This document shows, one piece after another, positions 3,967 to 27,777 of a stretch of 27,777 bases of DNA (within the stretch, counting starts at the first letter, position 1; every line of letters begins with the position of its first letter). The notes under the pieces were generated by a model. That model saw only the letters and a program-made list of their open reading frames with translations, was not told where the DNA came from and did not search any database. The translations under genes and the position numbers were made by a program. Location of the stretch: the NCBI GenBank assembly GCA_037381445.1, contig JARRQT010000017.1, forward strand, positions 23,360-51,136, written 5' to 3'. This DNA comes from Calditrichia bacterium (lineage in GTDB: Bacteria; Calditrichota; Calditrichia; RBG-13-44-9).

Positions 3967-6333
3967 TTACTGGAGCGATTCTTCTTGTCCGTCATTCTCC
4001 CGGGAGCTCCGCCGACTGATGGCGGCCTGTTTCCGCCAGTTCACCCGGCACAGGGGCAGATACTTACAAACCCTGCCATTCCAGCCCCGGCATTGCGATT
4101 CATCCATGGTATGAGGAAATTTTCCGGAGCGGATATTCCGGATGTAACCGGCTGCGAATTCCAGACTTCGTTCAAGAAATTCTTCCAGGCTGACGGGAAC
4201 ATCGTCGACGGCATATTTGTCATTAGGCAGAATGACTGACTTTCCTGCCTCGGTGCTGCCCACTGAAAGCCGGCTGTCCAGAAAAGCAATTTTTTTCCGG
4301 ATATCCTGTTCTCTTTTCAGGGAATAGTAGGCGCCGCCCGCCATGTCCAGAACAGGGTATTGATCCTTCAAAAGATCGAACACAGCTTTGAGGTATATGG
4401 GGAGTTGCAGGTTCTGACCTTCCCATATACTGCTTGTATTGGGGGCTGTCCCGGTTTTGTAATCCACCACCAGCAGCGCGCCGCCATCGGAAATCTCCAC
4501 CCTGTCTATTTTCCCCTTGAAATAAAATTTTTCGCCGTCCTGCTCCCAAAGAAACGGTTCTGTGGTCGATACCGGATCAGCATCTTCCTCCAATTCCCGG
4601 GTATTTCCGAAAGACAATTCAAAGTGCTTCGGGGCGGTGGAATACTGACCGGCTATTTCCTGTTCATATTCCCAGAAGGCGGGGAACAGTCCGCGGTGGC
4701 GGGAGCTTCCTAGGTAAAATTCTTTCTGCAGCTGCCATAAAATGCTCTGCGTCACCGGTATCCTCTCCAGCTCTTCTTCAGCAATGGCAAGCAATCGGGA
4801 CAAGTCCCGCCGCTCCGCTGCATTTTCCCGGTAAAACCTGAACAAAATATTATGAACGGTGATCCCCTTGTCCAGGGGTGTGAGCAGCTCATCCGCCTCC
4901 TCTTCGGGTTCCAGATGCAGAATCCGCTTAAAAAAATAAATAACGGGACAGCGGGCATATTCTTCCAGCTGCGTGATGGAAAATCGCCGGGATTTGTAAA
5001 CAGCATCCAGCCAGCGGGATGTCACTTCATCCCCTTCAAGCATTCCCTCCCATTGCGAATTATCATCCGTAATTTCCCGGCGCCTCTCAACCGATTTCAG
5101 GAAATTGAACTGCGCTATGGCATCTTTGTCGAGTATGCTTTGCAGGTTTCCAGACAAGCCGGTTGACTCAAATCTTTTCAAATCCGCATTCCTGTCGAAG
5201 CGGATGATTTTTGTCAGAATATCTGCAGCGGTATATAATCGGGTATCCCGTCTCGCGGAGAGCTTCCCTTCCGAAATTCTCTCGATCTCCCTCAAAAAAG
5301 CGGACGGCAAAACCGGATTGTCCTGATGATAGCGGGGACTAGAAAACTGAATAATTTCCGTATCAGACTGCAGAATTTTCAGAAATAACTCTCGGTCACG
5401 GTAAATTGTCTCATCCGGTAGGAAAGGTTTTAGTTCCCGGGCGATGGTCTGGGGATGAGTGAAGCCCGGCGAACCCTTGCCGGGAAAGACCCCGTCTTTC
5501 ATTCCCAATACAAAAATCGCTTTTGATTTTCGCGTTGGCAGATTTTTAAGGGGAGTTATCTGAACGCCGAAATTTTGCGGTCTCCTGAGGCGGTATGACG
5601 CCGATCCCAGCATCAGCTCCAAGATGTTACTGAGTTCTCGGACATCGAACCTCCTACCGGGATAGTACTCACGGATGATTGTCTTCCAGTTATTAAGGGC
5701 ATCAAGAAACGAGCGCAGTGCAGCAAGATTTTCTTCCATCCAGGCACCGTCTCTCTCACCGGACTCTCTCTGAATCCTCCGGGTTATCTGGTGGACGGCG
5801 ATAAAATCAGACCAGAATTGGTAGATGCTGTCGGCGCTTTGCGGCTGCTCAAAAAATTCTGCCTGACGGAAAAGCTGCGTGATGTTTTGGATAAGCGAAT
5901 CGTACCTTTTTGCCCCGGTTTCATCCGGTTCATTGTTATGTACGGAGCTGGCATAGAAGGCCTTCTCCCTTTTCAGCAATTCCAAAATTTCCTTTTTACC
6001 GCCCCGGGCACGAAGACTGTTTAAAATATTTTTATATTTTGTGTCTTTCAGCGACTCATTGTAATTAAAAAAGGGCGATTGCAGGATTTTCCGCACAGTC
6101 AGCAAAGAATAGTCTTCCGGCACGAGTTCCGGAATCAGCAAAAAGTGTTGAATCACCAGCGTCTGATCAATGAAGCGGACTTCATTAAAAGTGAAAGGAA
6201 TTTTATAGCGCCGGAAAACCGCCTCCAATAAACTGCGATATGCGGGCAGGACCGGTGAACTCACTCCGATGTCGCTGAACCGCCAGTTTTTATTCGCAAC
6301 AATTTTCCGGATTTCTCCTGCCAGGCTTTCCAT
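3967..6333 (-). CDS. C-terminal fragment of the AddB-like protein, with PD-(D/E)xK nuclease and Fe-S cysteines
   Basis: FSITQLEEYARCP, KGITVHNIL, HFELSFG, GKIDRVE, DYKTG, QLPIY, C-x7-C-x5-C. The AIFVLGMKDGVFP motif resembles the UvrD C-terminal domain. Confidence 0.7.
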   Translation of the reverse strand: MESLAGEIRKIVANKNWRFSDIGVSSPVLPAYRSLLEAVFRRYKIPFTFNEVRFIDQTLVIQHFLLIPELVPEDYSLLTVRKILQSPFFNYNESLKDTKYKNILNSLRARGGKKEILELLKREKAFYASSVHNNEPDETGAKRYDSLIQNITQLFRQAEFFEQPQSADSIYQFWSDFIAVHQITRRIQRESGERDGAWMEENLAALRSFLDALNNWKTIIREYYPGRRFDVRELSNILELMLGSASYRLRRPQNFGVQITPLKNLPTRKSKAIFVLGMKDGVFPGKGSPGFTHPQTIARELKPFLPDETIYRDRELFLKILQSDTEIIQFSSPRYHQDNPVLPSAFLREIERISEGKLSARRDTRLYTAADILTKIIRFDRNADLKRFESTGLSGNLQSILDKDAIAQFNFLKSVERRREITDDNSQWEGMLEGDEVTSRWLDAVYKSRRFSITQLEEYARCPVIYFFKRILHLEPEEEADELLTPLDKGITVHNILFRFYRENAAERRDLSRLLAIAEEELERIPVTQSILWQLQKEFYLGSSRHRGLFPAFWEYEQEIAGQYSTAPKHFELSFGNTRELEEDADPVSTTEPFLWEQDGEKFYFKGKIDRVEISDGGALLVVDYKTGTAPNTSSIWEGQNLQLPIYLKAVFDLLKDQYPVLDMAGGAYYSLKREQDIRKKIAFLDSRLSVGSTEAGKSVILPNDKYAVDDVPVSLEEFLERSLEFAAGYIRNIRSGKFPHTMDESQCRGWNGRVCKYLPLCRVNWRKQAAISRRSSRENDGQEESLQ

Positions 6334-7271
6334 TTCCCGCAGGGGATCAACCGGTTTTGTGATGCCAGGCTTTCCATTTCCCGCAGGGGATCAACCGGTT
6401 TTGTGATGGAAATCCTGTCTCTTATTTCTAGCGTCTGAGCCTCTATGTTGAACAGGGAGTCGCTTAATCCGTCGCTGTCCGGAAACGGGGCTGTTGCATC
6501 TGCGATTTTTTTCAGTTTCTCAAACAGCGATTCTTTCGCCTGAAATATTTCAGGATTGGTGCCATACGGAAAAAGGAGTAACACATTCATGCCGATTTCG
6601 CTTAATTTCCGCACCAGCAGCAGATGACTTTCTTTGAAAAATGAGACATCCTCCCAGATAATTGTCTGCAGTCCGGGGAAAAAGTTCAGAAAAAAAGGCT
6701 GCGAAATTTTTTTGGTCAAACGGCGGAGGAGTTCGGCCTCGTCAAGTAAATGTCCGCTCACAATTTTCCGGTAGTCCGCGAAAAGAACAGACAAATCCTT
6801 CTCCAGCCTGTCTGCCGGCGTGAGGGGCAATCGGCTCGGATGATGAGACAGGATTTTATCGTCGGCATTATTCAGACGCACCTCATCAAAAAACTGCAGC
6901 AGGCTTCCGATCATCCCGTTTGGGATCTGCTGGTCCGGGTAATCGAAATATCCGAAATCATTCTTCTTTTGGGCCGCTATCTCCTGCAGGATAACCGCTT
7001 GCTGAACAGAGTCCGCTTGCCTGGCCGGAATATTGGATTTTTCAAATAGCCGGTTCAGGAAATTTGAATAAGTCAGAAAAGGAAAATCCGAAGCAATGTC
7101 GCCGGATTTCTTTAAAAAATATTCCTTTTTCAACTCCATCACCCTTGCGTTGTCCGAAGCCAGATAAAGACAGCTGCCGTCCTGACGGATCAGTTCAGAA
7201 TGATCTTTGAAAAAATTCTTTATGAGGTGGGACAGGTTCGCCCCATACTGTAATTCGATTTGGCCAGTCAT
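6261..7271 (-). CDS. N-terminal fragment of the AddB-like protein (inactive helicase-like region)
   Basis: 336-aa ORF with no recognisable Walker A. It leaves the native frame inside the duplication after ...DPLREMESLA. Confidence 0.6.
   Translation of the reverse strand: MTGQIELQYGANLSHLIKNFFKDHSELIRQDGSCLYLASDNARVMELKKEYFLKKSGDIASDFPFLTYSNFLNRLFEKSNIPARQADSVQQAVILQEIAAQKKNDFGYFDYPDQQIPNGMIGSLLQFFDEVRLNNADDKILSHHPSRLPLTPADRLEKDLSVLFADYRKIVSGHLLDEAELLRRLTKKISQPFFLNFFPGLQTIIWEDVSFFKESHLLLVRKLSEIGMNVLLLFPYGTNPEIFQAKESLFEKLKKIADATAPFPDSDGLSDSLFNIEAQTLEIRDRISITKPVDPLREMESLASQNRLIPCGKWKAWQEKSGKLLRIKTGGSATSE
6319..6408. repeat. Exact 44-bp tandem duplication
   Basis: tgccaggctttccatttcccgcaggggatcaaccggttttgtga at 6319-6362 and 6363-6406, followed by a further 'tg'. 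Confidence 0.97.
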
Positions 7272-7428
7272 GAAATCCCCGTTTTATAGGATTGCATAAA
7301 TATAGAAAATTGTGGCGGCTTTGGCAAGGCAACAAATCCGCAGAAAACATAAAAGCTCCATCTCATTAAAGTACTTGCTTTATCTGCTGTTTATTAACAT
7401 TTTTTATGAAACAAATTTACGGAAGAAT

Positions 7429-8628
7429 ATGACCCCATTCCTGGGACTGCTGCTAATTCTGATCATTACTTTCATCGGCGCCCGTTTTTTCAGCCACAGT
7501 GCGGTTTTAAAATCCCCATTGTTTTCCGGCCTGGTGGTCAGCGGGATTCCCTACATCCTGGTGGGCGTTCTGCTGGGACCACGGTTTTTTAATTTCCTGA
7601 ATACTGAAATCATCGACAGCCTCAGGCCCCTCATAAGCCTGGCATTGGGCTGGATCGGCCTGCTTTTCGGAATCCAGCTACGCTGGCGCAACCTTCAGCG
7701 TTTCCCCAGAAATTACCTGCTCTTTACCTCCGTCCAAAGCCTGATTACCTTTGTAATCATATTCATCACGATGACTGCAGTCTTTTTCATATTGATTCCC
7801 TCCCCCTTCCATAATTTGTGGGAAGCGGTCTTTATTCTCGCGGCGCTCGGATCCGTTACCGCACCGCTGACCATATCACGCATTCTCATCGATAAAAGGG
7901 TCAAAGGAAGGTTGTCACATTTGATTCAGTTCATTGCCAGCCTGGACAGTTTTTGGGGCATCACCATTGCCGGATTGGCCATGGCCGTATTTCATCAGCC
8001 TGCGCTGCGGTGGTTTACCAGTTTCTGGGAATGGATTTTGCTCACAATTGCAATCAGCATTTTTTTGGGTGTCATTTTCAGATATCTTATTCAATTGCGG
8101 TTTCTTTCCGACGAAGTTTTTCTGCTGGTTTTCGGATTGCTCATCTTTGCCAGCGGAATCGGATTTTATCTCAGGCTTTCGCCCATCTTCATTGCCATGA
8201 TCATCGGAATTACCTTGGCTCAGTTTCCCCGCGAATCCGAGAAAGTGATGCGGGTGCTTCACCAGGCTGAAAAACCCATTTATCTTTTCCTGCTCATTTT
8301 TGCCGGCTCTTTATGGAATTACAGGTTCTGGGAAGAAATCATACTGATACTCTTTTTTATTGCCTCCAGATTTGCGGGCAAACAGATAGGGGGCCTTTTC
8401 AGCGCCCGTTATATTAATTGCGCTTTTCCCATCCCCTCTGATATTGGTAAGGCGACGCTTTCCTTCGGGGGCGTTTCGCTGGCCATCGCATTCAATTTTC
8501 AGCTTTTTTACGGGGGGGCAACTGGCGACTTTTTGATGAGCGCCACCATATTGGCGATATTTATCTTTGATGAGTACACCGCTCTCGGCACCCTGAATAT
8601 TCTGAGACGGCAAGGGGAAATCCGATGA
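7429..8628 (+). CDS. Cation:proton antiporter (CPA/Na_H_Exchanger fold) family protein
   Basis: About 12 hydrophobic segments. YILVGVLLGP, LALGWIGLLFG and RFAGK motifs. ATG 7429 is preferred over the GTG at 7312. Confidence 0.8.
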   Translation: MTPFLGLLLILIITFIGARFFSHSAVLKSPLFSGLVVSGIPYILVGVLLGPRFFNFLNTEIIDSLRPLISLALGWIGLLFGIQLRWRNLQRFPRNYLLFTSVQSLITFVIIFITMTAVFFILIPSPFHNLWEAVFILAALGSVTAPLTISRILIDKRVKGRLSHLIQFIASLDSFWGITIAGLAMAVFHQPALRWFTSFWEWILLTIAISIFLGVIFRYLIQLRFLSDEVFLLVFGLLIFASGIGFYLRLSPIFIAMIIGITLAQFPRESEKVMRVLHQAEKPIYLFLLIFAGSLWNYRFWEEIILILFFIASRFAGKQIGGLFSARYINCAFPIPSDIGKATLSFGGVSLAIAFNFQLFYGGATGDFLMSATILAIFIFDEYTALGTLNILRRQGEIR

Positions 8629-9935
8629 TGAGGCGATTACTCACCGTTATCCTGCTTCTGATTGCCTTGATGGCTTTTCTTACCCACATTAAGTTTGCCG
8701 GGGAAGATCATCTCATGTCCGCAAGCATGATGGCGCTGGGATTTACCCTCATTGCCGCCTATCTCATTGGCAAAACGGTAATGCGCCTCCAGCTTCCCAA
8801 AATTACAGGATATATCCTTGCCGGCATACTGGCCGGACCCTACGTCACCGATCTGCTTTCGGTGCCGGTGGTCCGCAATCTCCAGCTAATCGACAATATT
8901 GCCCTGTCCCTGATTGCCCTGACCGCAGGAGGAGAGTTCAGATATAAAACCATAAAAAAACAGATGAAGACCATTGGAAGCACCATACTCTGGCAGGTCA
9001 TCATTGTCTTGCTGACGTTCGTGATTTTCATCTTTTTGTATCAAAACCATATTTCCTTTCTGGCCCACAAACCTTTAAATGTGGTACTCGGTGTCGCATT
9101 AATTTTTGGCTCTCTTGCCATTGCAAAATCACCGGCCACCACCATTGCGATCATCACAGAAAGCCGCGCCAAAGGAAAATTCACGGATTTTGTATTGGGG
9201 GTCACGGTTTTCAAAGATATTGTGGTTGTTCTGGTTTTCTCGATTGTAATATCTTTTGCAAAGCCCATGATACTTCCCGAAACGCCTTTGCACTTCACTT
9301 ACCTGTTTAATGTCTTTCTGGAAATCATCCTGTCAATTATCGTAGGCTTTGCTGCAGGTTTATTAATTTTATTTTATTTGAAGTATGTCGGAAAACAGAC
9401 AGTTCTGTTTTTATTGGGATTTATTCTGCTGGGTATTGAATTGTCGCGCATGTTTCATCTGGAAGTTATTCTCCTGTTCATGGTTGCCGGTTTTTTTGTT
9501 CAGAATTTCAGCAACGCCGGCGGCAAACTGATTTCCGCCATCGAAGGCGGCTCATTACCCATATTCGTCATCTTTTTTGCGATTGCCGGTGCATCTCTCA
9601 ATTTTCCGGTCTTCCTGGAAAACTGGTTTCTCGCGGTGCTTATTGTGGGATTGAGAATGCTCTCCACCTATGAAGGAACCTATATCGGGGCCCGTTTAAC
9701 AGGCGGGAGCAGGGAAGTTCAAAATTACGGCTGGATGGGTTTTATCGGCCAGGCGGGTCTCACGCTGGGTCTGGCCGTGCTGGTCAAACAAAATTTGCCC
9801 GGCATCATCGGTGAAAGCATCGCCACTCTGATTATTGCCTCCATCGCCATTAACCAGATTGTGGGACCAGTGATGTTCCGGTATTCTCTGGTAAAGGTCG
9901 GCGAAACCGGCGTCAATCGACGGCGCTCTGCTTGA
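8625..9935 (+). CDS. Cation:proton antiporter (CPA/Na_H_Exchanger fold) family protein
   Basis: LPKITGYILAGILAGP, AKSPATT, FFAIAGASL, QAGLTLGLA and NQIVGP motifs. ATGA overlap with the upstream antiporter. Confidence 0.88.
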   Translation: MMRRLLTVILLLIALMAFLTHIKFAGEDHLMSASMMALGFTLIAAYLIGKTVMRLQLPKITGYILAGILAGPYVTDLLSVPVVRNLQLIDNIALSLIALTAGGEFRYKTIKKQMKTIGSTILWQVIIVLLTFVIFIFLYQNHISFLAHKPLNVVLGVALIFGSLAIAKSPATTIAIITESRAKGKFTDFVLGVTVFKDIVVVLVFSIVISFAKPMILPETPLHFTYLFNVFLEIILSIIVGFAAGLLILFYLKYVGKQTVLFLLGFILLGIELSRMFHLEVILLFMVAGFFVQNFSNAGGKLISAIEGGSLPIFVIFFAIAGASLNFPVFLENWFLAVLIVGLRMLSTYEGTYIGARLTGGSREVQNYGWMGFIGQAGLTLGLAVLVKQNLPGIIGESIATLIIASIAINQIVGPVMFRYSLVKVGETGVNRRRSA

Positions 9936-16288: not shown

Positions 16289-16768
16289 ATGCCAGCCAGG
16301 AAACTCATTCAGTCTCTCTTTCCGTTTGGTGAAAATTTCATTTATATCGTTGTTGGTTTTTTGCTTATCGCTGCCTCCTTCTTCCTCGTATTTGACATTT
16401 TCAGAATTTTTCTGCCATTCTCAGATTCGGGCGGCCTTATCCGCTGGGCGCTTGAAACAATAGATAAGATCCTTCTCATGCTGATGATAATTGAAATCCT
16501 TTACACAATGCGGGCATCATTTAAAGAGCATGTGCTTAATGCGGAGCCATTTCTGATTGTGGCGCTCATTGCCGCCATCCGGAGGATACTGGTCATCAGC
16601 GTGGAAAGTGCTTGCCTCCCTGAAAAATTTGTAAATCATATGATAGAAATCAGTATTTTGGGTGTTTTGACTTTTATATTTGTCGTTCCGATCATTTTTT
16701 TCGTCGCCGGACCACAGCAAACACATAATTTAACAAAACGCATTAAGGAGGAGGTATGGACCCTTTGA
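16289..16768 (+). CDS. PsiE-family (phosphate-starvation-inducible E-like) membrane protein; C-terminus possibly frameshifted
   Basis: DKILLMLMIIEILYT and EPFLIVALIAAIRRILVIS motifs, 4 TM segments, GGGGAG RBS. Confidence 0.8.
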   Translation: MPARKLIQSLFPFGENFIYIVVGFLLIAASFFLVFDIFRIFLPFSDSGGLIRWALETIDKILLMLMIIEILYTMRASFKEHVLNAEPFLIVALIAAIRRILVISVESACLPEKFVNHMIEISILGVLTFIFVVPIIFFVAGPQQTHNLTKRIKEEVWTL

Positions 16769-17838
16769 CCCTGATCCCCACCCCGGATACCATACCCGCA
16801 CCATCCTGGCTCTTTCTCCTTCTGGATGTTTCCACATTCACCCTTCACATTCTTCTCATCAACATTGTCCTGGGAGGCAGTTTAATCCTGCTGTTTACCA
16901 GGGCGGGAAAACAGAGTGCGGAACCGGAGAACAAATTGCAGGAAGGAATCGCCGGCAAGCTGCCGGTCATCATCGCGCTGGCTATCAATTTTGGAGTAGC
17001 ACCGCTGCTGTTTCTGCAGGTTATTTACGGACATTTGTTTTACACCAGCTCGGTCCTCATGGCGGTGTACTGGATTTTGATTATCCCGTTACTCATCGTG
17101 GGATATTACGGCGCCTACTACTATATCCGTAAAAAATCAAGCGCCCCGATGCTATCCAGAATCGCTATTTTGCTTACCAGCCTGATCCTTTTATATATCG
17201 GTTTTATTTTTGTCAGTAATATGACCATGATGGCCCAGCCAGAAAAATGGGTAGCTTACTTCGAAAACCGGGGCGGCACCCTGCTGAATTCGGGCGATCC
17301 CACTATCATCCCCCGTTACCTGCATTTTGTCACGGCCTCCATTGCCATCGGCGGATTGTTCCTGGCAATTGTCTGGTGGTTCCGGAAACAAAAAAATGCT
17401 GCCGGCGCAGAGGAGAAAATCAAATCCGCGCTCCGCATTTTTGGAATTGCGACCGCCATGCAGGTGGTTATCGGTTTCTGGTTCCTGCTGGCTCTTCCCT
17501 CTGAATTCATCATTCAGTTCATGGGGCAGAATTTGTTTTTCACACTCTTGCTTTTCGCGGGAATCTTTTTGGGCATCGGCGCTATCGTCTTCGCTTTTCT
17601 GGGAAATTTGACCTTCACTGCTGCCTTCTTTGTCGCCACGATTCTGACCATGGTTATCACGCGTGCCAATCTGCGCGCTCTTTACCTGGGCGATGCCTTC
17701 AGTCTGAGCAGTCTGAAGGTCGCTCCCCAGTACGGCGTCATGGCATTGTTCTTCATTATTTTCGCGGTGGGGATTGTCTCCGTGGTTTACATGGTAAGAA
17801 TGGCAATTTCTGCAAATGAAAGGAGGATTGCCTCATGA
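16756..17838 (+). CDS. Polytopic membrane protein, divergent cytochrome bd subunit I (CydA)-like partner subunit
   Basis: About 9 TMs. LHILLINIVLGG, AINFGVAP and RYLHFVTASIAIGG align by eye with CydA TM1, TM2 and TM5. Strong RBS AAGGAGGAGG. Confidence 0.7.
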   Translation: MDPLTLIPTPDTIPAPSWLFLLLDVSTFTLHILLINIVLGGSLILLFTRAGKQSAEPENKLQEGIAGKLPVIIALAINFGVAPLLFLQVIYGHLFYTSSVLMAVYWILIIPLLIVGYYGAYYYIRKKSSAPMLSRIAILLTSLILLYIGFIFVSNMTMMAQPEKWVAYFENRGGTLLNSGDPTIIPRYLHFVTASIAIGGLFLAIVWWFRKQKNAAGAEEKIKSALRIFGIATAMQVVIGFWFLLALPSEFIIQFMGQNLFFTLLLFAGIFLGIGAIVFAFLGNLTFTAAFFVATILTMVITRANLRALYLGDAFSLSSLKVAPQYGVMALFFIIFAVGIVSVVYMVRMAISANERRIAS

Positions 17839-20516
17839 ACTATCCGATTTGGGAAATTCCGGCCATCGGGGGCGGGAGCCTCATCGCCCTCATTGCGATT
17901 TTGCACGTCTATATTGCTCACCTGGCGGTCGGCGGAGGCATGTTTATCTGGCTGACCGACCGGAAGGGATACCGCGAAAACAGTGCGGAGATTCACAACT
18001 ATGTTCACAAACATACCTGGTTTTTCCTGCTGCTGACCATGGTATTCGGAGGCATTACAGGCGTCGGCATCTGGTTTATTATCGCACTGATCCATCCCGC
18101 GGCAACCTCTTCCCTCATTCACAATTTTGTGTTTGGATGGGCAATCGAATGGGTTTTCTTCCTGGGTGAAATTACGGCCTTACTGGTCTATTATTATCAG
18201 TTCGACCATCTCACCCAGAAACAGCGCATGCAGCTTTCCTTTCTATATTTTCTGTTTGCCTGGCTGAGCCTGTTCATTATCAACGGAATACTCTCTTTTA
18301 TGCTCACGCCCGGCCAGTGGTTGGAGACCGGAAATTTCTGGCACGGCTTCTTTAATCCCTCATTTCTGCCCTCTCTCCTATTCCGCACCTTTGCCGCTGC
18401 CATGATCGCCGGTTTATTTGGGTATGTGACCACTGTTTTTCTGAAAGACAGCGCGTTCCGTTCCGCCATGTTAAAATATTCCACCCGCTGGCTGCTTTAT
18501 CCCCTGCTTGGCCTCATCCCTTCCGGCATTTGGTACTATTTCACCGTTCCGTCCGTGAACAGAGTAAGTGCCTTCAGCCTGAATCCCGAAACCGGCATTT
18601 TTGCCAGCCTCTTCATCGTTGCCTCCATATTGATTTTTCTCCTGGGGATTTTTCTTACCATGCGTTCAGGCGTCGCTGCCCAGCGAATCGCAACTTCCGC
18701 CTTGCTGATTATCGGCCTGGGATGGATGGGAGGGTTTGAGTACATGCGGGAAATTGCCCGTAAACCTTTTGTCATCAGCGACTATATGTACTCCACTTCC
18801 ATTTTAAAGTCGGACGCCGGGAAGCTGAGCCGGGAAGGGATTTTGGCAAATGCCAAATGGACATACGTTAAGCGGGTAACGCCACAAAACCCCATGGAAG
18901 CCGGGGAAGAAATCTTCCGCCTGCAGTGCTCGGGCTGTCATACCCTGAATGGAATTCGTAACGATATTATTCCCCAAACCGAACTGCTCTCCTATACGGG
19001 CATGATATCATTCCTTTTCGGGCAGGGAAAAGTACATACCTATATGCCTGAATTTATTGGCACGGAACAGGAAAAAGATGCGCTTGCCGCATATATTGCA
19101 GGCGGTCTGCACAAGAATCCGGTAATCATGGAGCCGCAGCCTTATCAGATCCAGCCGATATTGAATACTATTCCTGATTACGATCAAAAGAAAGCGGAGT
19201 ATATCCTTCTGGTCTGGAATGACCTGGGAATGCACTGCATATCGGACAGCGACCCCTGGTTCGTCATTTTGCCGCCGGCCAATACGCTGGAAGCACAGAT
19301 CATCAAACGGGGGCCTCTGCCGCAGCTTGTTGCCGATAACATTGAACTGACTTATCGGGTCGAACCAGGATTTGAAAATCCGGCAGCCCATACCCAATTC
19401 TGGGATTACGCGGAGAGAATTTTTGGGGCGAAGCTGCCCCAAAATGTGGGGCTTCACGGAAACGGCCTATCGGGAAAATTTAAATGGAATCCGGACCGGA
19501 ACAGTTTTATTGTGGAAACCATTCCGGTGATGCCCTACAACGATGACGGTTCGTTTAATCCATACCCCATTTTCACGGTGGAAGCCCGCGACAGCGCCAG
19601 CGGGAAGCTGCTGGCCGTAACTCAGGCCGTTACACCCACCTCCACCGAGATGGGATGCCGCAATTGCCACGGCGGAGGATGGAAAAGGAACGGAATTGCC
19701 GGCGTCTCGGACGAAACAGCAACCAATATTCTCAAGATCCACGACCGTCTGAGCGGCACCAACCTTTATGACCTGGCGCGCAAAGGTCAGCCTCAACTTT
19801 GCGCCGGGTGCCATCCCGACCCGGCATTGGGAGCAGAGGGAAAAGCGGGACAGATGTATCTTTCCGCTTCCATACATGGCTGGCATGCCAATTATATGCA
19901 TCTGAAAGGAGCGCAGGCATGCGGCATGTGCCATCCGGCCTATGCAAGCGGGCGAACCCGCTGCAGCCGTGGAATACATGGCGAGGTGGGAGTAACCTGC
20001 GTGGATTGCCATTGTGAACTTGCCGACCATGCCCTGACCCTGCTGAAGGGTCAAGCCGACAAACCCGGCGCCACGCGATTAATGGCCCACCTCACACCGA
20101 CCAAGGCAGAAAACAAAGATCAGATCAATCCGCGCAGCCCTTGGCTGAATGAGCCGGATTGTTTGACCTGTCATGAAGGTTTTCAAAAACCGGCGTCAAA
20201 TGCCACCTCCTATAATGTCTGGAGTAAAGCGTTCGAAGATCTTTACCGGATACGAACCGACAATGCGGGAATCCGCTGTGCAGCCTGCCACAATTCAACC
20301 CATGCGGAGTATCCCTCAGAAAATCCCTTCGGAAGAGACCGCGATAATATTCAGCCGCTGCAATACAGCGGGGCACCTTACCCCATCGGGTCGAATATCT
20401 CCTGCGAAGTCTGTCATATGCAAAAAATGGAGAATCCCATTCATCATCCGAATTTCTACCGGGAATTCAGAAACAAACGGACAGAACAGAAAACGGCAGT
20501 GGCAGCCAATTTTTAG
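17835..20516 (+). CDS. CydA-superfamily membrane domain fused to a monoheme and a heptaheme c-type cytochrome domain (8 CxxCH)
   Basis: N-terminal 8 TMs with LHVYIAH, AIEWVFFLGE, SFMLTPG, FFNP and REIARKPFVI. Heme motifs CSGCH, CRNCH, CAGCH, CGMCH, CVDCH, CLTCH, CAACH, CEVCH. AGGAGG RBS and ATGA coupling. Confidence 0.88.
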   Translation: MNYPIWEIPAIGGGSLIALIAILHVYIAHLAVGGGMFIWLTDRKGYRENSAEIHNYVHKHTWFFLLLTMVFGGITGVGIWFIIALIHPAATSSLIHNFVFGWAIEWVFFLGEITALLVYYYQFDHLTQKQRMQLSFLYFLFAWLSLFIINGILSFMLTPGQWLETGNFWHGFFNPSFLPSLLFRTFAAAMIAGLFGYVTTVFLKDSAFRSAMLKYSTRWLLYPLLGLIPSGIWYYFTVPSVNRVSAFSLNPETGIFASLFIVASILIFLLGIFLTMRSGVAAQRIATSALLIIGLGWMGGFEYMREIARKPFVISDYMYSTSILKSDAGKLSREGILANAKWTYVKRVTPQNPMEAGEEIFRLQCSGCHTLNGIRNDIIPQTELLSYTGMISFLFGQGKVHTYMPEFIGTEQEKDALAAYIAGGLHKNPVIMEPQPYQIQPILNTIPDYDQKKAEYILLVWNDLGMHCISDSDPWFVILPPANTLEAQIIKRGPLPQLVADNIELTYRVEPGFENPAAHTQFWDYAERIFGAKLPQNVGLHGNGLSGKFKWNPDRNSFIVETIPVMPYNDDGSFNPYPIFTVEARDSASGKLLAVTQAVTPTSTEMGCRNCHGGGWKRNGIAGVSDETATNILKIHDRLSGTNLYDLARKGQPQLCAGCHPDPALGAEGKAGQMYLSASIHGWHANYMHLKGAQACGMCHPAYASGRTRCSRGIHGEVGVTCVDCHCELADHALTLLKGQADKPGATRLMAHLTPTKAENKDQINPRSPWLNEPDCLTCHEGFQKPASNATSYNVWSKAFEDLYRIRTDNAGIRCAACHNSTHAEYPSENPFGRDRDNIQPLQYSGAPYPIGSNISCEVCHMQKMENPIHHPNFYREFRNKRTEQKTAVAANF

Positions 20517-20784: not shown

Positions 20785-23700
20785 ATGCGAAATGAAATTT
20801 TGAAAAAATTTCCCACAATAGATAAAAAGCTTGCTGAAAGTGAATTGAAGAGATGGTTCCGGGCGCCCGAGAAACAGTTCTCCCGCTTTCTTTCAGCACT
20901 TACTGGTTTGCAAACCGGACTGGAGAGACTTTCCCTCCGGAATGAGGACTTGCCGCAATATTGGGGAAATCTGGATCAAAATATCAGGGAAATCCTGGTA
21001 TGGCTGGAGACACTTCCCCTGATCCTTGATGAGTTTTCAGAAGATCTTGTTTGGTCGGAATTGGAGGCGGCCTTTCAGAAATCACTTTCACCGGTTCCCC
21101 AAAATATTTCCATCCTGCCGGCCGCAAAAGACATGACGATCCGGGATAATGACAGCTTTGTTAGGAAAGTTGTCAAATGGAGATTCTGGCTGCATATGAA
21201 CATAATCAATGTGAGTTGGCCGGTAATCAACAGGTTTCGCGCCCTCTTAAAAAAGCCGCGGTTACCTGTGCCCAAATCAGAGCGAAATATTCCATTTCAT
21301 CTATTCCTGAAAAAACATATCGAATTGCCTTGTGCTTCTTCTCTTTTGCAGAACTGGCAGATTTTCCTGAAGCAAATCTATCTGTATTTCCATGAAGCAC
21401 ATTCTATTCACGAGAAGATTAATTTTGAAATTCTCTCCCTGGAGAATTTTCGTGAAGTCTGCCAGCACACCCGGTTCATTATGTCGCGGGAGACACTGGA
21501 AAACCTGAGCGAATATATTCAGGAAATAACCGCCGTCCGGCAAAAAACAAAGCAGCTAAAAAGAGATCTTAATAAAGATATCAAAGAAGAATGGAAATCA
21601 ACCGAAGCCGCCGCAAAAGAGAGACTTGCGGAGGCAGGTACAATTTCTTTGCCCATCAGAAATTTCTCTCATAAAAGGATAAAAAGGGAATGGGCGAGGC
21701 TGCAGCAAAAATTTGAAACCAGTCTGTCAGCCTGGAGTGAACAATTTGAAAGGGAAAAAGAAGATTGGTCAAAAGATCTGGAGCTGTCACTGTTTCAGCT
21801 GCAATCCCTCAGAATCTGTACCAATACCGTTTATACGATCCGGCATAAAATCTCTGAAAATATCATCCCCTCCATTGCCGATGCCAAAACCACAATTTCC
21901 CGTTCTTTGACAAAATTCAAAACTGTTAAAGGCGAATTAAAGACCAAATTAAAGGGCGCCATAATTCATGAAAACCGTTCCTTGCTGCATCAGCTGCGCC
22001 GCGAGAGACTTCCCCAAATGATTGACACAATAATCCGGGTCGATCTTGAAAAAATTTTGCACGACTATCTCACCGGTATTGAATATGCGCTGGAACTCCT
22101 TCCTGACCAGCACACCATTTTTCGCCAGCAAAACATGGAGGGATTACTCCCCCGCTCAAAAAGTGACACCATCGAATTGAAAGAACTGGTGAGCGAAGAA
22201 TTGCTTTCCGGGCTGGCAATTTCCCACCGGAAAACTGCCGGCGAATTGCATGAACGACTGGAGCAAATGCGGCGCAACATCTCGGAATTGGATCAGATTG
22301 TTGAATTCAATTTGGAGGCGGCTCTGAATCTTTTGCAGCAGGGAAAAGAAACTGAAATTACCGACCATGCACTTCAGATAGTTAATGAAGGTTTGGAGCG
22401 AACACATAACCAGATCGACGATCTTGAACACCAATGTCGGCAAATTTCCGAAATAATAGCAGACCAGCTTCATCGCAATACATTCCATTTTGCCGAACAG
22501 ATTCAGGAGCTGGCGGATAATGAAAAAATTTTTCAATTAAGACTCCGGCTGGCAAGAACCAAAACACGCGAAAGGATTCACTCATACCGGAAAGAAATTC
22601 TCGTTTTTTTGAAAAAGCTCTTTCCGGTTCTAAAATCGGTGCTTATTACTTTTTTTCAGAAAATTACCTACACCTATAAAGGTTTCAGAAAGATCAGCGG
22701 ACTTTCGCCGGAGACTGTAAAAATTGAAGATAAACTAACACAGTATCTGTCTGAAACTCAGGCCAAGTTCAACGCGCTTCCCTATGTTTATCAGCGTCTT
22801 TTCCGGCCTGAGCCGCTGGAAGATGAACGTTTTTTTGTGGGCCGCGAGATGGCATTCGATTCCCTCCGCAATGCCTTTCGGAGCTGGGAGAAGAACCAGT
22901 ACGCCACCACCGTTCTCATTGGCGAGAAAGGCAGTGGAAAAACAACCCTGCTGAATTTTGCCCGATCCCAGTTTTATCATGACTATAAGATTATCATGCA
23001 CAATTTTTCAGAGACTGTTATTTTTGAAGAGGATTTATTAGCCCATTTGAAATCGGCATTCGGGAATAATTCAGTGAAATCTCTGGCCGACCTGGAAAAT
23101 AAGATTCAGGAATATGATTCGCGCCAGGTTTTCATTTTGGAAAACATTCAGAACCTGTTTTTGAAAACAGTTGAAGGATTTAACGCTCTGGAACGATTTC
23201 TTCTTTTTATTTCAAGAACCAGTGAAAGAGTTTACTGGATTTCAACCTGCACCCTTTACAGCTGGCAATATCTCGAAAAGGTGATGCAAATTTCAAAATA
23301 TTTCCAATATCCGGTGCAATTGGGCGGATTGACCAAGGACGAAATTAAAAACATTCTTTTAAAGAGGCATCGGGTCAGCGGTTACCAGCTGCAATATGAT
23401 GCGCCCGACCATTTTGATAATTCTCGTAAATTTAAAAAGTTGACAAAAGATACCTCACGCCAGGCCTACCTCGAGGACATTTTCTTCAAAGATTTGAATG
23501 AATTGTCAAACGGCAATATTTCTGTAGCCATATTGTTCTGGCAGCGGGCCATTCGGGAAGTTTCCAAAGAGAAACTGATTGTATCGCCCATTGATAATTT
23601 CGACTTCAGTTTCCTCCATCAACTCCCTTCCGAGGAACTTTTTACGCTCATGGCCCTTTTACAGCACGAAATATTGAGCGACCATCATCACAGTATTATA

Positions 23701-23850
23701 TTCCGCCAAAATCCTGAAAAGAGCTCAATGATAATGGACAGGATGCAGCATTCCGGAATGCTGGTCAAAAATCAGTTCGGATATCAAATCCATCCATTTT
23801 TGTACCGGCCGGTCGTCAGGGTATTAAAATCCAAAAACCTCTTGCATTAA
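20785..23850 (+). CDS. Large hypothetical protein with a helical N-terminal region and a C-terminal P-loop (AAA-like) ATPase domain
   Basis: 1021 aa. FFVGRE motif, Walker A GEKGSGKT (22921-22944), Walker B-like VFILEN and SNGN motif. Confidence 0.85.
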   Translation: MRNEILKKFPTIDKKLAESELKRWFRAPEKQFSRFLSALTGLQTGLERLSLRNEDLPQYWGNLDQNIREILVWLETLPLILDEFSEDLVWSELEAAFQKSLSPVPQNISILPAAKDMTIRDNDSFVRKVVKWRFWLHMNIINVSWPVINRFRALLKKPRLPVPKSERNIPFHLFLKKHIELPCASSLLQNWQIFLKQIYLYFHEAHSIHEKINFEILSLENFREVCQHTRFIMSRETLENLSEYIQEITAVRQKTKQLKRDLNKDIKEEWKSTEAAAKERLAEAGTISLPIRNFSHKRIKREWARLQQKFETSLSAWSEQFEREKEDWSKDLELSLFQLQSLRICTNTVYTIRHKISENIIPSIADAKTTISRSLTKFKTVKGELKTKLKGAIIHENRSLLHQLRRERLPQMIDTIIRVDLEKILHDYLTGIEYALELLPDQHTIFRQQNMEGLLPRSKSDTIELKELVSEELLSGLAISHRKTAGELHERLEQMRRNISELDQIVEFNLEAALNLLQQGKETEITDHALQIVNEGLERTHNQIDDLEHQCRQISEIIADQLHRNTFHFAEQIQELADNEKIFQLRLRLARTKTRERIHSYRKEILVFLKKLFPVLKSVLITFFQKITYTYKGFRKISGLSPETVKIEDKLTQYLSETQAKFNALPYVYQRLFRPEPLEDERFFVGREMAFDSLRNAFRSWEKNQYATTVLIGEKGSGKTTLLNFARSQFYHDYKIIMHNFSETVIFEEDLLAHLKSAFGNNSVKSLADLENKIQEYDSRQVFILENIQNLFLKTVEGFNALERFLLFISRTSERVYWISTCTLYSWQYLEKVMQISKYFQYPVQLGGLTKDEIKNILLKRHRVSGYQLQYDAPDHFDNSRKFKKLTKDTSRQAYLEDIFFKDLNELSNGNISVAILFWQRAIREVSKEKLIVSPIDNFDFSFLHQLPSEELFTLMALLQHEILSDHHHSIIFRQNPEKSSMIMDRMQHSGMLVKNQFGYQIHPFLYRPVVRVLKSKNLLH

Positions 23851-23860
23851 GGGAGAACCA

Positions 23861-24841
23861 ATGATACAAAAGATGTTCCGGGCAACTCTGATGGTTGCAG
23901 CTTTGGTGATGATCATACAGGGCGAAAATTTGTATTCCCAGGAAAATTCCGATACGTCTTCCTCCGGAAAGGGTGAAAAAGCTGCTGTTACATCGGGCAG
24001 TTCGATGACACAGGCACTAAAAGAATCACAACCCCAGATTAAATGGTCCATTTCTGTTTCAAAAATATTCTGGTCAATCGTTATGTTTCTGGTGGCTTTG
24101 CTGGTAATTAAAAATCTGACCCGTCTTCTGGAGGCCATTGCAGAACGATGGACAAATCTAAGATTAACGATCAAAGGAATCATTCCTATTTTTCGTATCT
24201 TCGGATGGACATTCGTGATCTATGTTATCATTGCAGGGATTTTTGCGCCTCCCATCCAGACCCTGATCGCGGTAACTGCCTCCGCAGGCATTGCGGTTGG
24301 CTTTGCAGCCCAGGATATTCTTAAAAACATCTTTGGCGGCATAATGATTCTGTTCGACCGGCCTTTTCAGGTCGGCGACAAAATAAAGGTCGGGGAGCAT
24401 TATGGCGAGGTGATCAGCATAGGCTTGCGTACCGTTCGCATCGTCACGCCGGACGATTCCGTGGTATCCATCCCCAATAGCGAAATTGTGAACAGCTCCG
24501 TTTCGAATGCGAATTCCGGGGAATCATATTGTCAGGTAGTGGCTGAGTTATTCCTGCCGCCTCATATTAATGTCAGCAGGGTAAAACAGATTGCGTACCG
24601 TGCAGCGGCGGTTTCCCGTTACGTATATCTGAACAAACCGATTGCCGTTATCCTGAAAAACGAGATCCACCAGGGCCGCTCCTTGATGAAACTGCGCCTG
24701 AAGGCCTATGTGTTGGATATCCGGTATGAATTCCCGTTTATGAGCGAAATGACAGAAATTGTGATGGAAGAGTTACTGGGACAGGGACTGGTGACCGCGA
24801 AAGATCTTGCCATGCTGTCCGCTATTCAGGAAAGTAATTAA
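23861..24841 (+). CDS. MscS-family mechanosensitive channel
   Basis: AGIAVGFAAQDILKNIFGGIMILFDRPFQVGDKI and GEVISIGLRTVRIVTPDDSVVSIPNS. Confidence 0.93.
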   Translation: MIQKMFRATLMVAALVMIIQGENLYSQENSDTSSSGKGEKAAVTSGSSMTQALKESQPQIKWSISVSKIFWSIVMFLVALLVIKNLTRLLEAIAERWTNLRLTIKGIIPIFRIFGWTFVIYVIIAGIFAPPIQTLIAVTASAGIAVGFAAQDILKNIFGGIMILFDRPFQVGDKIKVGEHYGEVISIGLRTVRIVTPDDSVVSIPNSEIVNSSVSNANSGESYCQVVAELFLPPHINVSRVKQIAYRAAAVSRYVYLNKPIAVILKNEIHQGRSLMKLRLKAYVLDIRYEFPFMSEMTEIVMEELLGQGLVTAKDLAMLSAIQESN

Positions 24842-25056
24842 ACCGCTGAGCACTTTGTCTTCCCATAAAATAATGAATGGAATTATGTTTCTTTGAAGAC
24901 ATGACCGCAAAACGATCAATTTTTTATTAAATTCCGGACGAAGAGAGGTCCGGGCGGCTTTAAACGCTATGAAATATGAAGAAACAGGTAGTCCAATAAA
25001 AGTAAGATTTGAATTTTTGCCACACTTAAAACAAAATATTATGCGGAGGGAATACC

Positions 25057-26106
25057 ATGAAATTCAGATTAAAGAAATCGATTATGTTTCTAATGCTATT
25101 GCTGATGTGCCTGCCGGCTATGGCCGGTGATCAGCCCGATTCGCTTTTTACGGAATTTAAGGAAAATTTTAAGAAGGAATATTTCAGCGTCGGCGCGTTA
25201 TTCCAGGCAGTCACGGATTTCCAGATCGAACGGTCTTTCTCGGGAAATAACGGATTCAATATCTCAAATATGCGGATTAATTTTTCGGGAATATTCGACG
25301 GCGGTTTCGGCTATTTTTTCCAGGGAAACCTGATTGACTCTCCCTCCATTCTGAGCGCGGATATGTTCTATGAGACATCTCCTGCCTTCCGTTTGACCGT
25401 CGGACTGTTCAAAGCGCCCTTCAGCAAAGAATTTCTGACCAGTGCGGCAAATATTGATTTCGTTAACCGGTCGCAAATCGTAACCTACTTTGCTCCCCGC
25501 TGGCAGATCGGCGTACAGGCCAGCGGATGGTTCCGAAACAGCTCCCTCTATTATGCGGGCGGATTGTTTAACGGTAACGGATTTGATGGAAATAATAATG
25601 ACAATAATAATTTCATGGCGGTCGGCCGCATTGCGTATTATCCCAGGAAAATCAACCAGTCGGCTGATAAGCATCTGGAGGCCGGCTTCAATTTCGCTCA
25701 CAGTAAAGATGATAATCTCGATCTGGGCAGCGGATTATACCCGCACTTTTTCGGCAAACGGACCCTTGTCGGCGCGGACTTCCGTTACATCATGGATCGC
25801 TGGCTGTTCGCCGGGGAAATCATATCCGCTTCGCTGGAGCCCGGCCTCGGAAGAGAAATCAGTCCCTACGGTTTTTATCTGACAGTGGGAGATATGCTGA
25901 GCGCCAAATCCCAGATTTTGTTCCGCTGGGATAGCTTTCATTCCGATGGACTCCTGTATCCGGACCAGGATTCTGATTTGCTGATCTTAGGATACAATTA
26001 CTGGCCGACACGGGTTACTGAATTACAGGTCAACTATATTATCAGAACGCAGGATATGGAATTTGAACACAGCCAAATTCTGGTAAATGCCCAGGTGGCA
26101 TTCTAG
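25057..26106 (+). CDS. Outer-membrane porin, OprO/OprP-like beta-barrel
   Basis: Signal peptide ending AMA, GLFKAPFSKEFLTS...FVNRS motif, alternating beta-strand pattern and C-terminal Phe. GGAGG RBS. Confidence 0.82.
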   Translation: MKFRLKKSIMFLMLLLMCLPAMAGDQPDSLFTEFKENFKKEYFSVGALFQAVTDFQIERSFSGNNGFNISNMRINFSGIFDGGFGYFFQGNLIDSPSILSADMFYETSPAFRLTVGLFKAPFSKEFLTSAANIDFVNRSQIVTYFAPRWQIGVQASGWFRNSSLYYAGGLFNGNGFDGNNNDNNNFMAVGRIAYYPRKINQSADKHLEAGFNFAHSKDDNLDLGSGLYPHFFGKRTLVGADFRYIMDRWLFAGEIISASLEPGLGREISPYGFYLTVGDMLSAKSQILFRWDSFHSDGLLYPDQDSDLLILGYNYWPTRVTELQVNYIIRTQDMEFEHSQILVNAQVAF

Positions 26107-26126
26107 TTTGGCACGGAGACAGATCA

Positions 26127-26942
26127 ATGGCTAAAAAACAGACTTCGGATGGGAGGATTTCTTTGTGGGGCGACTTTCCGCTGCCGGATAACGAGGAAAG
26201 GCAGTGGGAGGTCGGTCCTTTCCGCTTGCATTATAAAATCTCCGGAAATGAACTATGGACGGAATATTCCCGGCAAAATTCCAAAGAAGGCAGCAATAAG
26301 CCGGCGCAATCTGCGGAGAATACCAGCTGGTCCCGCTTTGCACTCCGGCACGGTTATGCCAAAATCCGCATTCTGCCTGTTCTTCCCGATCGTGCGGTGG
26401 TTGTGAAACCGGAAACTGCCTTTTGGATATCGAAAGGAGCAAAATCTCGGGTCTACGTAAGAGTACCTGTCTGGGTTCAGATGCGGCTGATGGGAAGGCA
26501 GCCGGTAACCATACTGGACGTTTCTACAGTTGTATTATCAAACACCTGGTTCGGCGGTTTCATGCAGGGGGAACTGAGCTACTGGATATCCTCCAGCGCT
26601 CGGGTAGATATCTTGCCCGACCCCTCACGGCCTCACATGGCAATCTGCCCAATCCAGATTATCAACAACTCCAATAGCGACCTGCTGGTTGAGAAAATTG
26701 GTTTGCGGGTTCCTTATCTTTCCCTGTTTTATGACAGCGGACAGTTATGGTCGGATGAAATGAAGATCTCCTACCGCGGCGGCGAAGCGGTCAGCAGCCT
26801 GTCGGTGTCAGGTATTGTCCCGCCGGAACTGCCCGGCGGAAAATTAATTTCGGCACCGCGGGATCATATGAAAAAGAATTTCGCAGCCAAGACATTTTCG
26901 TCCATTAAAGATTTGCCCGGATTAGGCATATTTTCAAATTAA
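26127..26942 (+). CDS. Hypothetical soluble protein, DUF432-like
   Basis: 271 aa with no TM or signal peptide. LPDRAVVVKPE...VYVRVPVW and LSNTWFG...GELSY resemble DUF432 proteins (from recollection). GGAG RBS. Confidence 0.65.
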   Translation: MAKKQTSDGRISLWGDFPLPDNEERQWEVGPFRLHYKISGNELWTEYSRQNSKEGSNKPAQSAENTSWSRFALRHGYAKIRILPVLPDRAVVVKPETAFWISKGAKSRVYVRVPVWVQMRLMGRQPVTILDVSTVVLSNTWFGGFMQGELSYWISSSARVDILPDPSRPHMAICPIQIINNSNSDLLVEKIGLRVPYLSLFYDSGQLWSDEMKISYRGGEAVSSLSVSGIVPPELPGGKLISAPRDHMKKNFAAKTFSSIKDLPGLGIFSN

Positions 26943-26956
26943 GGAGGAGCCCGCTC

Positions 26957-27777
26957 ATGTCTCTCATCAGCACGGAATTCAGTCAATATTTTACGCCGGA
27001 AAAGCTTGCTTCTCTGATGCGTATTGGTTTCCTGCTGTTTATTATATTGCCATCAGTCCTTTTGCTCAGCAAATGGGTCGGCAAGTATGCGGCAAAAAAA
27101 CTGTCTCCGCAGCAGGGAATGGTTTTCCGAAAATTATTTCTTTATGCAGGAGTCGTTATTATTGGATTTTCACTGGTCAGTGAAATGGGATTTCAGATCA
27201 CCCATCTGCTGGGTGCAGCCGGAATCCTGGGGATCGCCATCGGTTTCGCTTCCCAAACCAGTGTTTCAAATGTGATCAGCGGGCTTTTCCTGATTGCCGA
27301 AAAGCCCTTTGAGATAAATGATGTGATTGTGGTGGGAGACACAACCGGACAGGTGCTTTCCATCGACATGCTGTCCATAAAATTGCGCACTTTTGACAAT
27401 AAATTTGTGCGGATCCCCAATGAAACTATCGTCAAGAGCCAGGTTACTAATATCACACGGTTTCCCATCCGCCGGATGGATCTGGACATCGGCATTGCGT
27501 ATAAAGAGGATGTCGCCCGGGTTCGTAAAGTCCTGCTGGAAATCGCCCGTGAGAATCCGCTCTGTCTGAATGAGCCGGAACCCATGGTTATTTTTTCGGG
27601 ATTCGGTAACTCCTCTGTGGACCTGACTTTTTTGATCTGGGCTGCCAAATCGGATTGGATCAAAGTTAAGAACAGCATCATGGAGGAGGTCAAGAGACGC
27701 TTTGATGAAGAAAAAATAGAAATTCCCTTTCCCCACCTTTCCCTCTACAGCGGCACCGCCACGCAGCCAATGCCAAT
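26957..27777 (+). CDS. mscS: MscS-family mechanosensitive channel, 3'-truncated by the window (absent from the ORF track)
   Basis: AAGGAGG RBS, ATG 26957, open to the window end: MSLISTEF...LLGAAGILGIAIGFASQTSVSNVISGLFLIAEKPFEIND...RIPNE...IEIPFPH. Confidence 0.93.
   Translation, partial: MSLISTEFSQYFTPEKLASLMRIGFLLFIILPSVLLLSKWVGKYAAKKLSPQQGMVFRKLFLYAGVVIIGFSLVSEMGFQITHLLGAAGILGIAIGFASQTSVSNVISGLFLIAEKPFEINDVIVVGDTTGQVLSIDMLSIKLRTFDNKFVRIPNETIVKSQVTNITRFPIRRMDLDIGIAYKEDVARVRKVLLEIARENPLCLNEPEPMVIFSGFGNSSVDLTFLIWAAKSDWIKVKNSIMEEVKRRFDEEKIEIPFPHLSLYSGTATQPMP

Follow-up and report, generated by a model that had tools for sequence, protein, structure and literature searches.

Two reciprocally paired sets of MscS-family channels and soluble proteins in a Calditrichia locus, with a proposed role in channel regulation

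Introduction

In textbooks, MscS channels exemplify force-from-lipids gating that involves no protein partner. To our knowledge, the known members of the MscS/YnaI family form homoheptamers and have no soluble subunit dedicated to them; the MscS cage is reported to touch FtsZ. Among other membrane channels, soluble partners are familiar: GlnK, a small soluble protein encoded beside the channel AmtB, inserts a loop into its cytoplasmic opening, and in KtrAB and TrkAH a cytoplasmic nucleotide-binding partner lies beneath the membrane channel. Here we describe a locus at the end of a 27,777-nucleotide stretch of DNA from a Calditrichia bacterium (assembly GCA_037381445.1, contig JARRQT010000017.1, positions 23,360 to 51,136 of the forward strand; hereafter the window), in which two MscS-family genes each follow a gene for a soluble protein. 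The first of these proteins has 1021 amino acids and is called the module, the channel behind it being MscS1; the second belongs to the family DUF432, and the channel behind it is MscS2.

The DUF432 pair would work in the manner of GlnK-AmtB without being homologous to it, DUF432 being all-beta and giving no match to the PII fold in fold searches. The module pair would work in the manner of KtrAB and TrkAH; those systems use an RCK ring, whereas the module carries an AAA+/STAND-like domain on a 640-residue helical arm and its channel is of the MscS family. Both pairs are real, widespread and undescribed in the literature searched. That search found nothing on either pair and no mention of DUF432, most subscription journals lying outside its scope; the passages of PMC4230888 that it covered likewise hold nothing on a DUF432-MscS2 or module-MscS1 pair.

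The locus and the samples

Five open reading frames (ORFs) on the + strand, with gaps of 10, 215, 20 and 14 nucleotides, were re-derived from the window sequence, and the ORF calls bear out the co-oriented arrangement that an earlier note on this DNA had described:

20785-23850, + strand: module ORF, 1021 amino acids, no transmembrane segment, partner of MscS1
23861-24841, + strand: MscS1 ORF, 326 amino acids
25057-26106, + strand: porin ORF, 349 amino acids, Porin_O_P with signal peptide, OprO/OprP-like
26127-26942, + strand: DUF432 ORF, 271 amino acids, soluble all-beta, no transmembrane segment
26957->27777, + strand: MscS2 ORF, 273 amino acids, open at the 3' end (contig end)

The Pfam matches over cut-off are AAA_22 in the module, MS_channel_2nd in MscS1, Porin_O_P, DUF432, and MS_channel_1st/2nd/3rd in MscS2. 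The window ends where the contig ends, no other contig of the assembly overlaps there, and comparison with homologues suggests that MscS2 lacks about 10-20 C-terminal codons. The starts of genes 2-5 are preceded by a Shine-Dalgarno-like purine-rich stretch and gene 1 is without a clear one; a promoter and terminator scan stayed at chance level (16 vs 12.2 and 9 vs 8.8). The module, porin and DUF432 genes are present in one copy each in the genome.

Gene neighbourhoods were compared in a main module scan (79 loci from the best 80 of 281 relatives), in 86 genomes of the window's phylum and in a 401-genome sample from another group. Kin among the sampled genomes are not independent; the pairings nevertheless span several phyla.

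Reciprocal pairing of channels and soluble proteins

The main scan contains 78 distinct module ORFs. MscS1 lies directly behind 72 of them and directly in front of one; another has one gene in between and four end at the locus edge, so that module and MscS1 are adjacent in 73 of the 74 loci with room. The same holds for the best 30 of 81 module matches in the 401-genome sample, where MscS1 is directly behind in 30/30, and for hand-picked unusual matches, where an MscS-like partner adjoins in 20/20 and stands in front in seven (the 30-, 20- and 79-locus sets overlap in at least one locus). Seen from the channel, each of the 31 MscS1-clade genes that the phylum sample contains (in 29 of its 86 genomes) has a module gene immediately ahead of it. 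The pair also occurs on a Novosphingobium plasmid, with a gap of 2 nucleotides. Two kinds of variant keep the association: MscS1 precedes the module in L334-L336, L342-L345 and L056, and in L337-L341 short forms of about 300-430 amino acids, which contain the P-loop domain only and nest among full-length relatives in the tree, still have MscS1 behind them. In G078 and G082 (L257, L267, L053) the module and MscS1 genes are split into several ORFs, by decay or long-read errors.

The partners also diverge together. In a quick tree, a single branch (Shimodaira-Hasegawa-like approximate likelihood ratio support 97) separates all of the 50 module partners sampled from 15 other MscS proteins, and the subgroups of MscS1-type partners mirror the module tree. 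Mutual information between module and MscS1 gave scattered, probably phylogenetic top pairs, its controls covering the first 150 columns only. The module probably binds MscS1.

Other genes recur at these loci. At least two MscS-like genes are present in 29/79 scan loci, and an ordinary third MscS paralogue of about 295 amino acids often stands behind MscS1 (L016, L017, L018, L037, L038, L049, L067). A plain 740-residue SLC12 gene and a glycosyltransferase-2 gene adjoin the free module-MscS1 pair in L027, L051 and L067/L263.

The second pair is equally strict. The window protein matches PF04254 with 25.2 bits against a cut-off of 21, the family comprises 2,010 clusters at 50% identity, and in the Atlas clusters 94-100% carry PF04254. 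An MscS2-clade gene directly follows the DUF432 gene in 43/43 loci: 18 in the phylum, 21/21 matches among the 401 other genomes, three more, and Acinetobacter baumannii, where the pair (L230:4950-6698) is divergent from gspE and its first gene is annotated as hypothetical. A 41-residue DUF432 fragment (L256) was excluded from this count. Conversely, the MscS2 clade occurs in exactly the same 18/86 phylum genomes as DUF432, plus one contig-edge fragment. In a control search, Methanosarcina acetivorans also matched DUF432. The DUF432-MscS2 pair stands beside an SLC12 gene in L014, L015 (of the fused type) and L273 (cut by the contig end), and CorA-like genes recur beside both pairs (cluster c4, one member scanned).

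Neighbourhood and co-occurrence analysis thus upholds, across phyla and in both directions, the earlier proposal that each MscS belongs with the soluble protein ahead of it, and each of the two pairs is very likely a functional unit. The pairing goes far beyond what chance would give. Osmotic and ion-transport genes are indeed concentrated around the pairs, as would be expected if the pairs were merely co-regulated osmotic-stress genes without a physical link. That explanation is highly improbable: the exclusivity is reciprocal, the adjacency survives reversed order (seven loci with MscS1 first), the co-divergence is specific to paralogues, and the DUF432-MscS2 complex passed the structure prediction described below.

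The porin and the five genes as a whole

The earlier note had read the five genes as one energised pathway across both membranes. Co-orientation and short gaps favour such a path, and so do two observations from the samples. First, in 7/18 DUF432 loci of the phylum a module gene, free or fused, is no more than about 3 kb away; four different arrangements occur, and this clustering of the two pairs exceeds chance. Second, the porin adjoins the module pair in three genomes, those of the window, G012 and G041. The wider sampling speaks against it. Among the 79 scan loci, of which 59 have at least 3.5 kb downstream, the porin is present in one and DUF432 in four; of 24 outside genomes with DUF432, 14 also carry the module, and the two are adjacent in none. 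The two pairs are apart in most genomes, and the five-gene order was found in the window only and in none of the other loci examined.

The porin itself is well recognised (PF07396, 40.4 bits against a cut-off of 20.9, with an N-terminal hydrophobic stretch; the ExtI model scored far under cut-off), and it does not follow the pairs. No porin match was present in G076, G077, G030, G033 and G025, genomes in which the DUF432 pair is beside a module gene. A search of 10 module-bearing genomes returned two close homologues, both elsewhere, and one weak one; the close homologues, of G008 and G038, sit among unrelated genes. No homologue was found in the five module-lacking genomes. The porin is a loose passenger of the locus, perhaps co-regulated with it. 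There is also no periplasmic adaptor gene, and no conserved tripartite trans-envelope gene set was found at these loci. Together with the non-canonical Walker motifs of the module (see below), this synteny largely refutes an ATP-energised path through all five products, which we regard as very improbable. By its gene neighbourhoods, the locus is two separable, reciprocally faithful pairs, not one five-gene machine.

DUF432 and the side portal of MscS2

MscS2 is a conventional member of its family. It aligns gap-free to the core and cage of E. coli MscS (2oau, 6rld; E ~1e-33), has three Pfam MS_channel domains over cut-off (transmembrane helices 2/3, beta, alpha-beta), and keeps both the Gly/Ala pore helix (small-residue share 0.59) and the barrel strand (42/42). 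The curated NCBIfam cut-offs for named MscS/MscK/MscM orthologues were not reached by either channel, the best score being 136/400 bits for MscS2 and 67/991 bits for MscS1. The AlphaFold model of DUF432 is a soluble all-beta protein (predicted local distance difference test, pLDDT, 87). Foldseek returned no match at E 0.001, and the best structural match, VIA (Z 5.5, root-mean-square deviation (rmsd) 3.4, 79 residues aligned), is not proof of a new fold.

Residues 8-268 of DUF432 were modelled with three MscS2 chains (residues 45-273), using 42-row alignments in matching order. The complex passed with 0.62 (runs 0.61, 0.64 and 0.62) against 0.03 for the best control; the pass mark is reached by 116/157 solved and 2/215 mismatched pairs, counts that hold only roughly for DUF432-MscS2. 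At least 90% of contacts recur between runs, and the partner pLDDT is 74 or higher. On the DUF432 side the predicted interface comprises residues 136-150 and 260-265; on the channel it comprises residues 168-171, 198-207, 212 and 228-233 of one subunit, and 123, 134, 144-148 and 235 of another. Its main sequence features in the window are:

26532..26576, + strand: conserved DUF432 hairpin, residues 136-150 (Trp141, Phe142, Gly143, Gly148), predicted dock at the MscS2 side portal
27458-27469, + strand: MscS2 clade-specific surface motif, residues 168-171, in the predicted DUF432 interface
27554-27577, + strand: MscS2 clade-specific surface motif, residues 200-207, in the predicted DUF432 interface

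With an offset of 12 between MscS2 and E. coli MscS, the interface residues Val123, Phe146 and Trp228 fall on Tyr135, Ala158 and Trp240 of the latter. PMC8137935 names Tyr135 of MscS as the equivalent of a portal residue of YnaI. We take F209 and W299 to correspond to MscS positions 158-160 and 240. DUF432 is better conserved at its interface positions (0.63) than elsewhere (0.43; p 0.0005), and these positions form its most conserved surface. On MscS2, Phe169 and Ile171 are each kept in 41 of 42 sequences and Pro170 in all 42; the three positions vary freely in 16 other MscS proteins from the same loci. Mutual information between DUF432 and MscS2 reached a maximum z of 5.6, against 6.0-6.2 in shuffled data.

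The prediction supports binding without showing it, and DUF432 very probably binds the MscS2 cage at the portal. For this partner, then, the earlier suggestion that cytoplasmic proteins act on the MscS cage gains a predicted interface; for the module, cage contact is put forward below as part of a proposed mechanism. That DUF432 thereby alters conduction is a step further, towards which we lean slightly.

The module and MscS1

The module model (pLDDT 88, predicted template modelling score 0.73) consists of a long helical-bundle arm, residues ~1-640, and a P-loop domain, residues ~663-1021, with a Cdc6/Orc1-like AAA+/STAND fold that includes a lid and a winged helix; the Pfam P-loop AAA match covers residues 709-805. 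Its features in the window are:

21199..21288, + strand: basic amphipathic segment 1, module residues 139-168
22567..22710, + strand: basic amphipathic segment 2, module residues 595-642, just before the P-loop domain
22921..22947, + strand: Walker A, module residues 713-721, with Lys719 present in the window protein
23140-23145, + strand: non-canonical Walker B, module Glu786-Asn787

A transmembrane helix is absent: the Kyte-Doolittle peak reaches at least 2.0 in 1/109 homologues. Over the same homologues, segment 139-168 has a mean net charge of about +5 and a helical moment of 0.43 (medians -0.3 and 0.28), and both basic amphipathic segments, which are conserved, may serve as membrane-surface anchors. 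In a whole-model search the arm matched designed helical bundles only (Z 13-15), and an Atlas search with the arm gave no usable match.

The Walker motifs are unusual. The Walker A position is Lys in 57, Arg in 35 and Ile in 10 of the 109 homologues, and Walker B is Glu-Asn or Glu-Asp, never Asp-Glu. Because these motifs are non-canonical, the module is likelier to be a nucleotide-binding switch or pseudo-ATPase than to be a motor or pump, and the energised transport imagined in the earlier note is unlikely.

The folds nearest to the C-terminal domain are Cdc6/Orc1 and archaeal ATPases (1fnn, E 5.8e-7), and comparison with 7jgr_G gave Z 16.4, rmsd 3.3 and 245 aligned residues. Residues 663-1021 have their fold, lid and winged helix in common with Cdc6/Orc1 and archaeal STAND-type ATPases (1fnn, 2qby, 2fna, 2qen), from which the module differs by its low identity (13-17%), the non-canonical Walker B, the variable Walker A Lys, the N-terminal arm and the membrane-channel gene context. 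This relationship raises the question whether the module is a STAND-like transducer that takes the channel as input (tension, ion loss) and acts elsewhere, for example on DNA by way of its winged helix, or as a switch in stress responses or phage defence. The nearest folds (Cdc6/Orc1, TnsC and archaeal STAND-type ATPases, with NLRs and MalT lower) agree with such a role, and nSTAND3, like AAA_16, matches weakly and under cut-off, the model being without C-terminal repeats. We nonetheless consider it quite unlikely. The short forms keep just the P-loop domain and the MscS1 gene, relatives are fused in frame to membrane transporters, the neighbouring genes vary among CorA, TrkH/TrkA and permeases and are not defence genes, PADLOC gave a single weak match (mad8, E 3.4e-4), and DUF432 would be left unexplained.

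MscS1 has a signal-peptide-like N-terminus, three predicted transmembrane helices and a beta domain (PF00924, E 3e-23). It shares transmembrane helices 2 and 3 and the beta domain with E. coli MscS, and differs from it in its own C-terminal motifs and in being without the barrel-strand motif, which was found in 0/66 of the MscS1 set, in agreement with the profile alignment, and in 0/127 module partners against 42/42 MscS2. Some solved miniature MscS proteins (entries of 171-174 residues) are likewise without the distal cage. The best sequence match of the MscS1 profile in the PDB is MscK/MscM (7uw5, E 5e-25), where the extra mass is periplasmic and transmembrane and belongs to the same chain, whereas the partner of MscS1 is a separate cytoplasmic protein. 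The Gly/Ala pore helix is retained (small-residue share 0.56, n=66).

Fusions of the module to salt transporters

The module of the window is free-standing; in relatives it is fused to the C-terminus of transporters. HHalign (probability 100, 939 columns) aligns it full-length to the last 1000 residues of 1700-residue proteins. The N-terminal part of these proteins is an SLC12 cotransporter, which matches KCC2 (6m23) with E 4e-83; 77 full-length homologues were aligned. In 80 metagenome loci there are 47 such ORFs, and a small MscS-like gene lies directly behind 38, in three cases as fragments. Five of the 47 are cut and four are without a partner (two are genuine misses, one is truncated and one is half of a gene that is split), which leaves 38 of the 42 ORFs with room; in the window's phylum the figure is 17/18. 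Plain SLC12 genes with room have an MscS-like gene behind them in 0/16 cases. Three loci gave no SLC12 score, L073, L082 and L090, of which L073 and L090 encode distant permeases (E ~1e-6). Animal SLC12 transporters are under the control of WNK-SPAK kinases and are not known to be regulated through a fused ATPase-like arm.

A second fusion type, of about 1500 residues, joins a CPA2 Na+/H+ exchanger domain to the module (L327-L333; seven loci, Pfam on three); the window's module is homologous to its tail along the full length. Its operons contain a second antiporter-like gene and a pore-decayed MscS-like gene, with TrkH/TrkA, the channel system compared with the module pair above, before or after. 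The window has an overlapping CPA2-like antiporter gene pair of its own (7312-8628 and 8625-9935, + strand), the best own-genome match (23-35% identity) to the fused antiporter and the gene ahead of it in L327-L333; a CPA2-like pair is also near the module in G008 and G012. The window pair was considered as a module partner in trans and rejected, since it occurs in 4/5 module-lacking family members and in 2/5 module-bearing genomes.

The partners of free and fused modules differ in the pore helix: Gly, Ala and Ser together make up 0.55-0.64 of it in partners of free modules and 0.20-0.23 in those of fused modules. Because the pore helix is kept in the one case and decayed in the other, MscS1 of the window has likely remained a channel, serving as the output of its module, and the MscS-like partner of the fused modules is likely an anchor or sensor.

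How the partners may act

Our results lead us to favour, with modest confidence, the explanation that the soluble proteins are dedicated cytoplasmic regulators of their MscS channels. Approaching from the cytoplasm, DUF432 would bridge two adjacent MscS2 subunits and place its Trp141-Phe142 hairpin on the portal rim, with up to seven copies per heptamer. By narrowing or gating the entry of solutes to the cage, it would turn MscS2 from a free emergency valve into a throttled or selective one. The module would rest under the membrane, held there by its two basic amphipathic helices, and would contact the cage of MscS1, from which the usual bottom beta-barrel is missing; the ATP/ADP state of the module would then set MscS1 activity, with no pumping. 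In the SLC12 and CPA2 fusions the MscS-like partner would act as anchor or tension sensor and the transporter as output. The direction of regulation and a role in salt and turgor control are inferred from these arrangements.

The same partners could instead be factors for the assembly, stability or localisation of the cages, required for folding, clustering or siting and leaving gating unchanged. This would account just as well for the strict pairing and the predicted cage interface, and for the fusion partners, at least, the decay of the pore helix points to a scaffolding role. On the other hand, DUF432 is predicted to sit on the portal rim, which is known to help determine conduction; most MscS paralogues at the same loci do without such a partner; and a nucleotide-binding arm of 1000 residues fused to two unrelated transporter families exceeds what a chaperone needs. 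We hold this explanation to be unlikely.

Several observations weigh against regulation by dedicated partners. No partner was detected for the module genes in G083 (L258), L125, L192 and L203, and in L063 one gene lies between module and MscS1; G083, whose assembly is 80% complete, is one of 30 free-module genomes and has no partner behind its C-terminal module piece. Both trees are quick, with long branches and no bootstrap, and kin share labels. The modelled complex contains one DUF432 and three channel chains without transmembrane helix 1, not a heptamer, and the interface on MscS2 is not significantly more conserved than the rest (0.77 vs 0.72, p 0.16). The genome of the window has no close SLC12 gene, so that the transporter link is borrowed from relatives, and the winged helix on the Cdc6-like fold could bind DNA instead.

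Other genes in the window

Upstream of the five genes lie a 360-residue membrane protein without a Pfam or NCBIfam match (16756-17838, + strand), whose gene overlaps the next, and an 893-residue protein with a multi-pass membrane domain and a multiheme cytochrome c (17835-20516, + strand; MtrC/c7-like matches). On the opposite strand a PD-(D/E)XK nuclease ORF (3967-6333, - strand) overlaps, in another frame, an upstream ORF of 336 residues (6261-7271, - strand); the two look like one gene split by a frameshift, which we take to be AddB-like.

What the pairs may mean for MscS channels

Two large clades whose members have obligate soluble partners offer a direct and testable answer to the question why bacteria keep many MscS paralogues, namely that these differ by regulatory subunit. 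For DUF432 the predicted complex provides a first candidate function and binding site. The module, for its part, leads to the proposal that prokaryotic SLC12 and CPA2 transporters are linked to a membrane-tension sensor. A broader possibility, which we hold to be less likely than not, is that both partners are true auxiliary subunits of MscS channels. DUF432 would then be a portal plug that adjusts which solutes a mechanosensitive channel releases, and the module with its MscS-like anchor would be a portable controller that senses tension and energy, gates its own channel when free and controls SLC12 or CPA2 salt transporters when fused, as a prokaryotic circuit for cell-volume control.

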